64,000 bases of DNA from an uncultured Verrucomicrobiae bacterium (GCA_963702845.1 OY969763.1:384001-448000); one strand, 5' to 3'; counted from the stretch's first letter, positions 12,390-15,698 are shown. Program-made: numbers and translations. Notes: a model not told the origin generated them from the sequence alone.

Positions 12390-12771
12390 ATCTTCGCTAT
12401 CGAAACAGAATCATCCCCGCCATCGAAAAGCACTCTCACATTGCTGACGTAATCCTGCGGAGAGGTAACTTGGTTGGGAGGATGGTAACGCATTTGTTGA
12501 TTCTTCTCATTGTGCAGGACACCGCAAGTTTTTTTGCCGCCATGCCCGCCTTGCCCGTCCGGCTCGGACCCTATCTCGGATGAAGGGCGACAGTCGGAGA
12601 GCACGACCACGATTCGCGACAGCAAACAACTCATTTTGGGCACCTGACTAGTGGCGGGCTTGGGAAGCCAACCTGAGCAGTCAAAAAAAAGAACATGAAA
12701 ACAAATACACAAAATACAAACACAGGTCACTGCAGCTTGAACTCTTCATCTCTTCTGCCAATCATCAACTG

Positions 12772-13332
12772 ATGCGGCGAAAATGGAAGGTCGCGGTTCT
12801 GCTTGGGTGCATCGTCGCCATCGCGATTGGTGTCGCGCTGTTGTGGTCAACTCAACTTAACCAGGTAACGATCACGATCCCTAACGGACCGACGCTCAAA
12901 CTAATAGAGGCGAATTACGATGTCCGCAGTCAAATGTTGCTGAACCAAAACCCAGCAAAGCGCGCCTTGCAGAAGCTGAGCCTCTTGAGCGCGAAAGTTT
13001 TCCCACGACTCTTCATGCAAACGAAGACGATTACATTCTATTCGGACCCGGGTGAGGCAGTGTTTTGGTTCAGCGAAACTCCATACGAGCCCGATCGCGC
13101 TCGCCGGACATGGTGTGCCGTCCAGGACCCCGGAAAGCCCTACACAATAATGGCGGCTTGGAAATTGAAGGCTTGGCGATATCCGAAAACTCCGGGCATC
13201 GTTGCCATCACCTGGCCAGAATGCCCTACGAACGAAGAGACATTGGAACTGTCATTTTACAATGAGAACAATATGGCCCGGTCCAATGTTCTCGGACGAA
13301 TCACATTGAAGAATCCAGCGTATCGGCAGTAA
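12772..13332 (+). CDS. Hypothetical membrane-anchored protein
   Basis: 186-aa ORF with N-terminal basic plus hydrophobic helix. No family recognised. Confidence 0.55.
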   Translation: MRRKWKVAVLLGCIVAIAIGVALLWSTQLNQVTITIPNGPTLKLIEANYDVRSQMLLNQNPAKRALQKLSLLSAKVFPRLFMQTKTITFYSDPGEAVFWFSETPYEPDRARRTWCAVQDPGKPYTIMAAWKLKAWRYPKTPGIVAITWPECPTNEETLELSFYNENNMARSNVLGRITLKNPAYRQ

Positions 13333-13445
13333 CCCCGCGCCGTGCATCAGTGGCCGTGCGCGAGCCATTCCTTTTAGAGACTCGCGTCGCCTCCAAACCT
13401 CCACGCCAGAGATTTGCAACCTCTGGATTCCGCGCGCAGAACACC

Positions 13446-13496
13446 CTTGTTCGCGCTGCGGAAATATGCGAACACATGTCGGTATAAGTGTTGGAC
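13446..13496 (+). promoter_or_regulatory. attI-like motif, copy 1
   Basis: CTTGTTC-N12-TATGCGAACACATGTCG...TGTTGGAC. Aligns with 14042-14094 and ends in a GTTRRRY core at the start of an ORF. Confidence 0.45.
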
Positions 13497-13778
13497 AGGA
13501 CGGAAATAAAGAGACTATCTATCTGCATAGCGGCGGCAATTCTCTCTTTTGTTACCTGCCATTTCGAGCCACTGCCTCACGGCGATGCATTGCTCCACTT
13601 GAGGTCCCTTGAAGCGCTCTGGAATATCCTGATCATTGCCGTGTCCGTAACGGCCGTTGCCGTTGGCATCGGCGTTCTGGTTCGCGGCTCTACTCCAGCC
13701 CGCGTCGTAGCAGTCGTCGCCTGTCTGTGGCCGCTTGCAGTCCTTTTGCAACTCGCGGCATTCCTGCTCGTTGAGTGA
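13488..13778 (+). CDS. Small hypothetical membrane protein (cassette-like)
   Basis: 96 aa, about three hydrophobic segments, begins at the GTTGGAC core. Start codon uncertain. Confidence 0.5.
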   Translation: MLDRTEIKRLSICIAAAILSFVTCHFEPLPHGDALLHLRSLEALWNILIIAVSVTAVAVGIGVLVRGSTPARVVAVVACLWPLAVLLQLAAFLLVE

Positions 13779-13785
13779 GGAAGGC

Positions 13786-13916
13786 TCACAACCCCCTCAA
13801 CCTCCCCTGAATAATCACGCGCGGCTTCGTTGCGACCATAGACCGCAACGCATCCGCCGCATCATCGCCGCCGATTCCATCCTCGGCATCAACTTTGTCC
13901 ACGTCCTCAGGCCGAT
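13786..13916 (-). pseudogene. Phage terminase large subunit 3'-end fragment, copy 1
   Basis: Encodes RPEDVDKVDAEDGIGGDDAADALRSMVATKPRVIIQGRLRGL*. 125 bp near-identical to 14731-14855. Confidence 0.6.
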
Positions 13917-14041
13917 CTTCCCCACCATCAGCGTTGCAGTGCGCGCGCCAATCGAGCCTCGCATCCTTCACGCCACGCCCTCACTCCGCAGCTGACGCAG
14001 TTAGGCGGGGTTGCAGAGACGCGCTTCAAGCTTATAAAGCG

Positions 14042-14094
14042 CTTGTTCACCTATCAAAGCTATGTGAACACTTGTCGCATATTAATTGTTAGCC
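14042..14094 (+). promoter_or_regulatory. attI-like motif, copy 2
   Basis: CTTGTTC-N12-TATGTGAACACTTGTCG...TGTTAGCC, directly followed by ATG at 14095. Confidence 0.55.
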
Positions 14095-14640
14095 ATGAAA
14101 CAACTCGCCGCAGTATTGTTGTCTTTGGTCATCGGGGGCGTTGGTGCCTCCGTTTTCGCGGGCGATGCCAGGACAAACCAGGCGCCACAGCGTGCTGTAA
14201 GCTCAGACGGTGATGTTGGATTGATCATCAAGGAGCTTTCCCCTGGTCATCCTATTGTAATTGCCATCGAGCGTTACAAAGATCATTCGAATCCCTCGCG
14301 GAGGGATGTGGAGATTCCCGAATCTCTGGCTCGTCAGTCGCAGACCAATTACGCGGAATTCAGCAGCGCCTTGGTCGCAGCCGCAGAGCATGCGAAGCTT
14401 GATAGCGCGTCGCTAGCCAAGATATTGGAGCTGGTGCGCGGCGCCAAAGAAAACAAAGGCTTGGCCGTAGTTCCGGTCGCTGCACACGCAACTCGGAGGG
14501 ACGGTGAGCTGGTTTGGGTTGTTTCGCTCAGATGGGAGGGAGAAAAATGGGTTTCAAGCGATGGAGATATGAGTCATTTCAGTAGTTTTACGTTTACGCA
14601 GAAGACATTGAGGAAGGTTGCTTTCGACTCGTGCGACTGA
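14095..14640 (+). CDS. Hypothetical secreted protein, integron gene-cassette ORF
   Basis: Signal-peptide-like N terminus (MKQLAAVLLSLVIGGVGASVFA). Bounded by GTTAGCC and an attC. Confidence 0.7.
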   Translation: MKQLAAVLLSLVIGGVGASVFAGDARTNQAPQRAVSSDGDVGLIIKELSPGHPIVIAIERYKDHSNPSRRDVEIPESLARQSQTNYAEFSSALVAAAEHAKLDSASLAKILELVRGAKENKGLAVVPVAAHATRRDGELVWVVSLRWEGEKWVSSDGDMSHFSSFTFTQKTLRKVAFDSCD

Positions 14641-14641
14641 T

Positions 14642-14730
14642 GGCTACAACTGCGTGCAGGCGACGCCGGGTTGCGCGCTGCTGTTTCCTGTAGCTGAGGT
14701 GCCCGGCGCGCCTGACGCATAGCGTTAAAG
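14642..14730 (+). mobile_element. attC recombination site
   Basis: R'' GGCTA(A)C, 5-nt spacer, stem CGT-G-CAGGCG-A-CGCCGGG pairing with CCCGGCG-CGCCTG-ACG (two extrahelical bases), 6-nt spacer, R' GTTAAAG. R'' lacks one A relative to the reverse complement of GTTAGCC. Confidence 0.75.
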
Positions 14731-14915
14731 CCCCCTCAACCTCCCCTGAATAATCACGCGCGGCTTCATCGCCACCATATACCGCAACGCATCCGCCGCG
14801 TCGTCGCCGCCGATTCCATCTTCGGCGTCAACTTTGTCCACATCCTCAGGCCGATTCGGATCGTGCTGCAATGCCGGCAAACACTCAATCAACCGCTGAC
14901 AACGTTTGTGTATGA
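14725..14915 (-). pseudogene. Phage terminase large subunit 3'-end fragment, copy 2
   Basis: PRLFIHKRCQRLIECLPALQHDPNRPEDVDKVD...DDAADALRY. A D-x-x-D-A-L-R-Y end is typical of TerL nuclease domains. Confidence 0.65.
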
Positions 14916-15376
14916 ACAGCCTTGGTGCAGTTGTCAGTCCCAACTATTGACAAAAGCCTCTTTCGTGAAGGGTAGACACTGCATTGAAACAAATGCCGAC
15001 ATTGATTGCGGAGGCAAATCTTCTTCCGCGTATTCAGCGCATTCCGCGGTTCCACTCCGTTCCCTTCGTGCCTCCTGTTCAATCGCTCCCGAACTTTGAT
15101 CCCCTAACTTCCAGCTTCGCTATCCTACACGCTTGACACAGCAGCTACTTAACTATAGGCTAAAGCCGCTGCTTAAAATGCAGTAGCAGGGTTTGCGTTC
15201 AACTTTGGATGCAATTCTCGCCGACAGTCGCGCCATAGCTTTATGCGAAGGCGGATTGGTCTTTGACATATAATGTAGCCGCCGAGGGTGCTTGTGGCAG
15301 TGTGTATCAAAACAATTTGTTCCGTAGTGCGAGGCGGAGGTTTGGCGGTTAACACTCAACTATCAACCCTCAACTT

Positions 15377-15577
15377 CCCGATCACCTCCCGACACTTCCG
15401 GACACCCTCCGGACACCCTCCGGACACTGAAAAAGGATTGTTTTATTTTCGTCCTGCGAAGGCGGGCCGTTTAGGAGAAACAAATGTTTCTCCAAAGTTT
15501 CTCCAACCCTTCTCCGAAGTTTCTCCATGTTTCTCCAAAGAGAAGGAATGGGAAGGAATGAGCAACAATGAGCAACA
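15377..15577. repeat. Helically phased short direct repeats
   Basis: CCGGACACCCT units (about 11-bp period, 15377-15428), TTCTCC units (about 11-bp period, 15486-15539), AATG-GGAAGG/AGCAAC units (10-bp period). Confidence 0.65.
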
Positions 15578-15698
15578 TTTTTGAATTTTTCTCCGGTTTC
15601 CGAATTTCGACCCATTGACTCCCAAAAAGGCGGAGGTAGTGAAAGATAATGTTGTTAATTGCGTGCTATCCGCTCTAGGGATGTCATGATTGACCCTT

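Follow-up and report, generated by a model that had tools for sequence, protein, structure and literature searches.

Two tandem attI-headed units closed by terminase fragments in a Verrucomicrobiae genome: a probable copy of a prophage cargo slot

The locus and its two units

We analysed a stretch of 64,000 nucleotides (the window; G000:C1:384001-448000) from an uncultured Verrucomicrobiae bacterium (GCA_963702845.1), whose genome, called G000 here, is a single 6.03 Mb contig with a completeness estimate of 89.8%. Other genomes are given by G numbers, and contigs or loci by L numbers. The subject was a pair of adjoining units, each with a motif resembling the integron site attI, one open reading frame (ORF) on the plus strand and a convergent 3' fragment (stub) of terL, the gene for the terminase large subunit (TerL). 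An earlier note on this DNA had described this layout. Both units were present with minor coordinate shifts, but stub 2 extended to 14928, not to 14915, and an attC site was found in unit 2 only (Table 1). The motif copies ended in GTTGGAC (G13490) and GTTAGCC (G14088). The attC crossover of unit 2 ran into the terminase stop codon (G14724|TT, stop TTA at 14725-14727), as had been claimed. In unit 1, the stop of the ORF (13776-13778) was 7 nt from that of the stub, and the window held a single match to the attC covariance model described below.

Both fragments were confirmed as TerL by a PHROG match and by protein identity to full-length TerL, in the case of stub 1 by way of stub 2. Stub 2 matched phrog_6672, 'terminase large subunit' (E=4.4e-4), and its protein was 64-79% identical to seven full-length TerL genes of G000. 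Stub 1 alone gave no PHROG match. The two ORFs were unrelated by blastp, in agreement with the note, and had no PADLOC match. ORF1 showed no homologue at E<=1e-3 and no R'' complement, and the ATA at 13506-13508 may be its decayed start. The ORF of cassette 2 had three homologues with 46-89% identity, and an Atlas search gave only leads below 0.9.

The 'PRLFIHK' part of stub 2 was tried as a cassette end and rejected; the look-alike was another terL piece. Setting the island boundaries by synteny with a sister genome failed, with two flanking genes on different contigs beside other neighbours. Among sequencing runs, one DNA run (share 0.07) and no RNA run was listed, and the four contigs of the DNA run contained no joints. 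One of them was identical to 13971-14150, perhaps from the source sample, and hence was not counted.

Table 1. Features at the locus (positions counted from the first letter of the window)
Feature	Position	Strand	Remarks
SIR2-like ORF, 297 aa	11496..12389	-	neighbouring island cargo, not a cassette; PF13289 E=0.023 (below cut-off); PADLOC SIR2 E=1.5e-5, residues 2-29 only
'pre' element, part of the spacer backbone between terL and portal in the prophages	12543..12725		11 non-self BLAST matches in G000, mostly other terL loci; part also in IMG/VR spacers
ORF A, 186 aa, with a hydrophobic stretch at the N-terminus	12772..13332	+	spacer cargo common to resident elements
'up' backbone element, which in the empty allele comes directly behind the terL stop	13358..13433	-	14 copies in G000; 5 nt past the terL stop in G002
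attI copy 1	13440..13496	+	crossover G13490|T13491; profile E=1.7e-11; family match to the attI upstream of G015 intI
ORF1, 96 aa, hydrophobic	13488..13778	+	probable decayed cassette, attC gone; no in-frame ATG
terL 3' stub 1, 131 nt	13786..13916	-	93% identical to stub 2 over 125 nt
'mid' spacer-backbone element	13910..14014		5 copies in spacers of resident elements; first 7 nt (13910-13916) common with terL, the joint between units; no GTT/AAC
attI copy 2	14036..14094	+	crossover G14088|T14089; profile E=2.3e-14; best alignment among 8 intI-flanking regions is the G015 attI
Gene cassette 2	14089..14724	+	ORF 14095-14640 (181 aa, signal-peptide-like start, function without assignment) and own attC
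attC	14641/14643..14730	+	crossover G14724|TT into the terL stop; fold z=-3.4; covariance model 52.7 bits (training member)
terL 3' stub 2, 204 nt	14725..14928	-	phrog_6672; start set by 24/25 identity to terL piece G000:2362106-2362130
Short dispersed chromosomal repeat, fused to stub 2 across 4 shared nt	14925..14950		right edge of phage-derived DNA; 4 other copies in G000

A variable slot behind terL in resident prophages

Five related elements reside in G000: P1 (~127-150 kb), P2 (1686-1741 kb), P3 (2222-2253 kb), P5 (4277-4324 kb) and P6 (4815-4850 kb). They encode TerS, TerL, portal, scaffold, major head and head-tail adaptor proteins, and their genes include an exonuclease (phrog_298). 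No tail family was matched among the 36 element ORFs scanned, and the elements are apparently temperate, tail-less prophages. The spacer between terL and the portal gene was variable, with a length of 5.4-15.4 kb in G000 and 2.8-6.5 kb in IMG/VR relatives. Its ORFs included 89 singletons among 17 spacer sequences, the window included. The 'pre', 'up' and 'mid' repeats of the window and ORF A were all parts of this spacer. ORF A showed 92-93% nucleotide identity to G000:138760-139244 and 1720560-1721044, clustered with a spacer ORF of P5, and had no Pfam or PHROG match. Since the window contained no other element gene, the locus was regarded as an orphan piece of spacer.

The position directly behind terL was the slot of interest. 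In G002, a genome of the same genus, the allele was empty: the intact terL stop was followed by 5 nt and then 'up'. Elements resembling 'up' were also read by eye immediately 3' of terL in L244, L250 and L259. Of the 14 'up' copies in G000, 13 had a terL end 198-2583 nt away and the 14th an internal terL piece. Eight of the 14 slots had a convergent attI beside 'up' (seven by profile and one, internally deleted, by eye), two were same-sense and four had none. Fifteen slot ORFs were unrelated, with no blastp match among them better than E=0.009. The slot ORF at G000:3446632-3447250 was a paralogue of a six-member host gene family; it had no att site, and its stop overlapped the end of the terL stub. 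Most slot ORFs had no family, and the defence-like ones sat at the 1543-1548 kb locus.

The earlier note had proposed that a prophage-like family loads a variable cassette immediately behind terL. This arrangement was borne out in four of the five resident elements and in five genomes of other families (see below). The attI-headed cassettes were convergent with terL in P1, P2 and P5 and same-sense in P3, and none was found behind the terL of P6. The idea of one cassette per slot did not hold, because arrays of two to three occurred (G105; G000:3665 kb). Tandem terL ends were present at six loci of G000: the window, P2, P5, 1543-1545 kb, 2358-2362 kb and 2817 kb. In G002, two further 'up' copies were filled with attI-like remnants (read by eye) and ORFs, one of them ending in a stub, and G001 had a terL stub with a partial attI.

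Other loci with element genes were noted. At G000:C1:1543165-1548132 (L047), two stubs framed clustered genes for TIR- and FRG-domain proteins, which had PADLOC matches, and one TIR gene followed an attI copy. At G000:C1:807600-808420, a mirror case from the other spacer edge was found as a chromosomal orphan, in which a portal 5' stub of 28 codons and backbone accompany an attI copy and an ORF of 139 aa that carries the remnant of an attC. An intact TerL with a TerS-like neighbour was located among housekeeping genes, with no other element gene, at G000:C1:2814196-2816502 and 6002575-6004757. The downstream context of the former was the same in G002.

The attI sites and the missing integrase

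The motif profile detected 46 copies in G000 at E<=0.01 and none in the reversed genome. In G015, of the same family, the sequence directly upstream of intI, on the opposite strand, differed from the motif consensus at one position in its last 22 nt. A related but poorer match lay upstream of intI in G018. Judged by this match of its 3' part to an intI-linked site, the motif is the attI of this family. The sites contain two overlapping inverted repeats upstream of the crossover (13440-13500 and 14036-14094 in the window). The outer one was missing from the intI-linked sites of G015 and G018 and may be a separate operator or promoter. A promoter scan gave nothing at the attI sites, at chance level. 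A Verrucomicrobial LexA box and a dif site were considered and dropped for misfits of spacing and length.

The note had stated that the window contains no intI. None was found there or in the whole of G000, at the completeness given above. The best TIGR02249 score in the genome was 85.9 bits against a cut-off of 265, and tblastn with the IntI of seven relatives gave only two tyrosine recombinases with 28-33% identity. By exact or near-exact search, the attI type of G000 was absent from 30 genomes of the same family, from the genome contig set and from the viral contig set. In three contigs of one metagenome (L150, L151 and L152), this type lay between genes, with neither terL nor intI present.

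These three contigs belong to a related organism in which the site heads one or two cassettes between core genes; the genes flanking it in L150 are adjacent in G000. In integrons of relatives (L007:1-270 and L012:1400-1510), an attC-like sequence stood directly against the start of intI, in the place of attI, which suggests attI loss or assembly collapse.

Signatures of apparently IntI-made cassettes

The bottom strand of the window attC was tested by folding, and 0/200 shuffles folded equally well. A covariance model was built from 18 attC sites of G000, including that of the window, and replaced half-site hidden Markov models from 13 seeds, which were too weak. It gave at least 52 matches in G000 (150/1980 candidates scored). 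Unit 2 had the composition of a cassette: an ORF, then an attC with a folding bottom strand and a crossover at G|TT. The start of cassette 2, GTTAGCCAT, was complemented at 9/9 positions by ATGGCTA..AC at the end of its ORF when two inserted nucleotides were skipped; the ungapped tests failed. The 2-nt insert may have inactivated this site.

Matching between cassette starts and their own R'' was then compared genome-wide for attI-headed ORFs. The value was 57, against 47.1 ± 4.6 in shuffles (p=0.022), using 25/29 sites with a clean GTT and leaving aside 19 more copies that lack one. The complementary runs of first cassettes were 10, 9, 9 and 8 nt in G105, G076a, G199 and P3. The match was better than in shuffles, which indicated that at least some were true IntI insertions made while an integrase was present. 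Judged by these signatures, the att sites are real integron sites, and the loading of cassettes looks IntI-made.

In two places, the window and G000:3667422, the attC crossover coincided with the terL stop; the attCs of the two differ, and their terL lineage is the same. In G076 the distance to the terL stop was 4 nt, in one case clearly and in another with G>A, and in P2 and P3 the crossover of the same-sense slots fell no more than ~5 nt from 'up'. On this cassette side, the joins resemble the IntI joins to secondary sites known from attG.

An IS110-family transposase gene (383 aa) was present in three copies in G000, at 3665654-3667345 (L048), 1729197 and 4307515. The L048 copy splits the last attC at 3.666 Mb, like insertion sequence (IS) elements that target attC.

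terL stubs and the joints between units

At the threshold used, TerL had 12 partial copies, 11 of them C-terminal, and 15 other element genes had 0-2 each. All 13 stubs of G000 were 48-204 nt long and 22/26 truncated copies across the order were at most 110 aa, lengths that are biased by a query of the last 100 aa, by short upstream flanks at half of the loci and by kin that are not independent. The excess of C-terminal TerL fragments and the tight stub lengths fit poorly with random prophage decay. No other element gene was found within ~4.5 kb of the G076, G100 and G105 stubs. A block of stub, 'up' and attI recurred at four loci.

The two stubs of the window differed at 11/126 positions, and their terL lineage had no full copy in G000; the full-terL row of G002, one base out of register in this alignment, was left out of the identities. 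These results suggested that two slot copies had been joined, rather than freshly duplicated. At the inner stub breaks, the overlap between terL and a hand-picked donor repeat was 7, 4, 11, 11, 8, 7, 9, 3, 1, 0 and -11 nt, so that 8/11 fell within 3-11 nt, and GTT/AAC was nearby in 1/11. The joint between the units of the window was such an overlap, of 7 nt between 'mid' and terL (13910-13916). The earlier note had assumed that integron recombination stacked the units. The breaks on short microhomologies did not support this, and stacking probably did not proceed via integron recombination. In other families, 18/23 stubs had no att site, which indicated that stubs can arise without cassettes.

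In G197, about six direct repeats of 30-35 nt were located just upstream of a terL stub (L273:2850-3150).

Recurrence across the order

This terL family was present in 62/401 genomes of the order. We fetched 101 of 104 listed places (three at contig ends were left out) and obtained 97 terL ends, of which 83 had at least 700 nt downstream. Four fetched loci without a terL C-terminus were dropped before counting, as was L178, a duplicate of L055. Inspection downstream of terL homologues, which the note had proposed as a check, showed that att-bounded ORFs do recur, but at a minority of ends. Convergent arrays of attI, cassette and terL were found at 7/97 ends, in five genomes from five other families, and all seven faced terL. 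The ends were in G199 (full terL), G049 (terL cut by the contig end), G076 (two), G105 and G100 (two stubs in tandem, the layout of the window). Arrays were more frequent at stubs (5/23) than at other ends (2/74; Fisher p=0.008, with kin not independent).

The slot attI types of other families were mostly unalignable with each other or with the G000 type. G105 has an intact integron of its own, and its slot site aligned with the attI of that integron; the site in G100 resembled the G015 type. G076 had no intI, and two of the three copies of its attI-like motif were at stubs. In a poorly resolved tree of 120 terL ends (129 columns), the 13 cassette-bearing ends needed nine changes, at least four of them forced by well-supported branches, and 0/200 bootstrap trees grouped these ends. 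We read this as several independent acquisitions. Taken as a family rule, the claim of the earlier note failed, because no att site was seen there in 14 IMG/VR relatives or at 90/97 terL ends of other families. The 14 relatives exclude distant viral terL relatives and those without a spacer (68/79 and 40/43 rows). The 'up' pattern was not found in the viral contig set. The convergent layout is a recurrent option, not a family rule.

Origin of the units

The arrangement is real and recurrent. Of the earlier note's two ideas, the one on loading behind terL was right, and the one on stacking was probably wrong. The best explanation, which we hold to be fairly probable, is that the window carries a stranded two-unit copy of the prophage terL cargo slot, loaded by IntI and re-joined by short homology. 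The spacer of 3-15 kb begins a few bases behind the terL stop, and these bases form a slot that can be empty. DNA bearing attI but no intI would have entered the slot repeatedly and independently in integron-bearing hosts; the resulting arrangement is seen in the genomes, and the route is conjectural. The attI arrays mostly face terL, co-directional with the minus-strand genes of the spacer itself. IntI acting in trans, present or ancestral, may then have inserted or exchanged true cassettes at the slot attI. In some copies it may also have used a secondary G|TT, on the backbone or a few nucleotides from it, as the partner of the last attC.

The filled slot, with 50-300 nt of terL and some spacer backbone, would subsequently have been copied or re-joined via short-homology illegitimate recombination. 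Homologous recombination between the many resident copies would contribute, and tandem units in prophages and orphan mini-islands in the chromosome would result. In the window, unit 2 ends in 'mid', and a 7-nt fusion connects this element with the terL stub of unit 1. A filled slot may thus move as a piece of 1-3 kb with a homology anchor at one end and microhomology at the other. This resembles homology-facilitated illegitimate recombination, a model for joining by homology plus microhomology. A single illegitimate cross between co-resident copies, or integration of a small circle, would give the same tandem and fits equally well. Since G000 has no IntI, the units are probably frozen for cassette exchange; they can still express their cargo genes if attI carries a promoter.

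Several observations weigh against this explanation. The attI copies are not specific to the slot: the ~46 copies across the genome include some in other parts of the spacer and some in ordinary intergenic DNA, and a clean GTT is missing from 19 copies. Beside the slots tested, no intI and no remnant of one was found, and the joins of attI to backbone are not at G|TT. Of 13 comparisons between starts and R'', seven reached at most 7/11, both window units among them. The last attC was truncated in G105, G100, G199 and G049, which points to illegitimate joins on the cassette side too. The donors behind the 3-11 nt overlaps were chosen by hand from BLAST matches with mismatches allowed, and P2 and P5 probably represent one event. 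The G100 unit had no covariance model match and was recognised by weak profile matches (E=0.59 and 0.014) and by reading. Finally, most stubs (18/23) and most terL ends (90/97) of other families showed no att site, and the layout was found in 0/14 close IMG/VR relatives, with one weak right-arm match (E=0.022, L057).

The rival explanations differ mainly in how the units came to be stacked and dispersed. The orphans could be former whole prophages that lost both arms by deletion, with an immobile slot and with cassettes as bystanders of attI spread. The microhomology joins fit such deletions equally, attI and attC are scattered genome-wide, and no mobilised intermediate was seen. However, passive decay predicts that every gene leaves fragments and that stubs vary freely in length, and terL 3' ends were the only abundant fragments, with the narrow range of lengths given above in G000 and across the order. 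Tandem units also occurred inside the intact P2 and P5 and in G100, and the surroundings of the G076, G100 and G105 stubs were free of other element genes. We consider passive decay unlikely. Integron recombination alone, in which IntI would excise a unit of terL stub, backbone and attI, itself an attI-type ('unusual') cassette, and put it back so that stacks build up, seems quite unlikely. It would account for two different attCs meeting the terL stop of one lineage at G|TT (the window and G000:3667422) and for the block recurring at four loci, and delta-attI cassettes are described as functional in the accessible text of PMC12901181. It requires a G|TT start, however, and there is no attC and no GTT ahead of stub 1, most G000 stubs likewise having no G|TT at the stop. 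The internal breaks are microhomologies with GTT/AAC at 1/11, most other-family stubs have no att site, and insertion of attI1 into E. coli genomic sites was not above background in the part of bioRxiv 2022.09.11.507474 available to us.

The narrow clustering of stub lengths could instead reflect a packaging or cleavage zone in the last ~300 nt of terL, from which resected, stub-first ends anneal by microhomology to copies or chromosomal repeats. The exonuclease of the elements (phrog_298) would suit this idea, and P2/P4 hotspots adjoin cos, where end-driven exchange is proposed (PMC9122126, accessible text). However, no genome ends were observed, and the orphan portal 5' stub with its own attI-cassette suggests that both spacer edges travel; we regard end-driven dispersal as very doubtful. 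A mis-join in the assembly is hardly credible. G000 is rich in short repeats, but the stubs differ at 11 positions, the ORFs are unique and another family has this tandem layout too.

Tentatively, and with less confidence than the stranded-copy explanation itself, the resident elements may be satellite integrons with a dedicated attI dock at the terL end. Host IntI would load the dock in trans, and phage recombination or packaging would export mini-islands that are tagged by terL stubs and seed attI sites anew in chromosomes. What was observed that bears on in-trans loading by host IntI was only the co-occurrence in G105 of a slot attI and an intact integron. If this is true, a phage could sample the cassette pool of its host and encode no integrase.

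Neighbouring features

The SIR2-like ORF lies at the island edge and is single-copy in G000, a possible defence effector with weak family matches. The repeat at 14925-14950 has inverted ends and four further, intergenic copies; it is possibly the scar of a mobile element. A low-complexity repeat at 15466-15643, upstream of a DEAD-box helicase gene, has about 11 other copies genome-wide.

Comparison with known systems

The sources below are cited for the parts of their text that were accessible. The earlier note knew of no described system with this layout. This was too broad, since attI-headed prophage arrays with no intI have been published (PMC9892861, Qi et al. 2023). A fixed, reused terL slot was not found in print, nor was any publication in which an attI slot at a terminase stop is used repeatedly, in a search that mostly did not reach subscription papers and supplements (e.g. 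Table S2 of PMC9892861). Shewanella prophage M16-3 carries an attC cluster with no integron integrase (CALIN) that has its own attI at the head and phage genes, a terminase among them, on its flanks, and illegitimate or off-target recombination was suggested for cassette entry into phages. Both cases are integron cassettes with no intI in phage DNA. However, the published phage CALINs are single cases in unrelated phages, whereas here the terL stop is reused and there are an empty allele, attI types that vary between host families, a strong convergent bias, tandems and orphans.

Membership of other described classes was considered as well. The window has one attC with no neighbouring intI and so represents a single attC site lacking an integrase (SALIN), with an added attI. 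Of a complete integron, it has an attI site, as identified by alignment, but no intI beside it. IntI can join attC to a minimal GWT genomic site, attG (bioRxiv 2022.09.11.507474), and this fits the crossover on the terL stop. An attG insertion keeps the original flank upstream of the cassette, however, and here what lies upstream is attI and linker, not the stretch found behind terL in the empty allele. Plain attG insertion thus fails to explain the unit. Delta-attI cassettes (PMC12901181) likewise have attI copies within arrays, downstream of an ORF, with a truncated or IS-interrupted attC. There, an attI remnant replaces attC within class 1/2 integrons; here the attI is ~55-60 nt long, with phage DNA between and microhomology joins. 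As a delta-attI cassette, the block of stub, backbone and attI would have to start at G|TT, and stub 1 begins with neither attC nor GTT. Only stub 2 and G000:3667422 begin at G|TT, and both have no attI behind them.

How integron cassettes enter and leave phages is an open question, and the slot offers a defined position for it, with empty and filled alleles and several independent attI types. One genome (G105) also holds the matching integrase, and the terL stub tags exported copies, so that the entry route is testable. The slot would offer a vehicle for the spread of attI away from intI. The terL stop could also serve as an anchor for mining cassette-borne genes in this bacterial order.

A functional likeness is to phage cargo hotspots. 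A preprint survey of hotspots (10.1101/2024.10.15.618418) does not mention integrons in the main text, and the word is used 0 times in that of the study on P2/P4 hotspots (Rousset et al. 2022, PMC9122126). Those hotspots are also small, high-turnover loci between conserved phage genes, one of them by the portal gene, with exchange via conserved flanks. The terL slot likewise holds variable genes between conserved flanks across related elements. It differs in that the cargo consists partly of attI and cassettes and that the terL flank travels as stubs. By this analogy, the slot works like a phage cargo hotspot with partly integron cargo.

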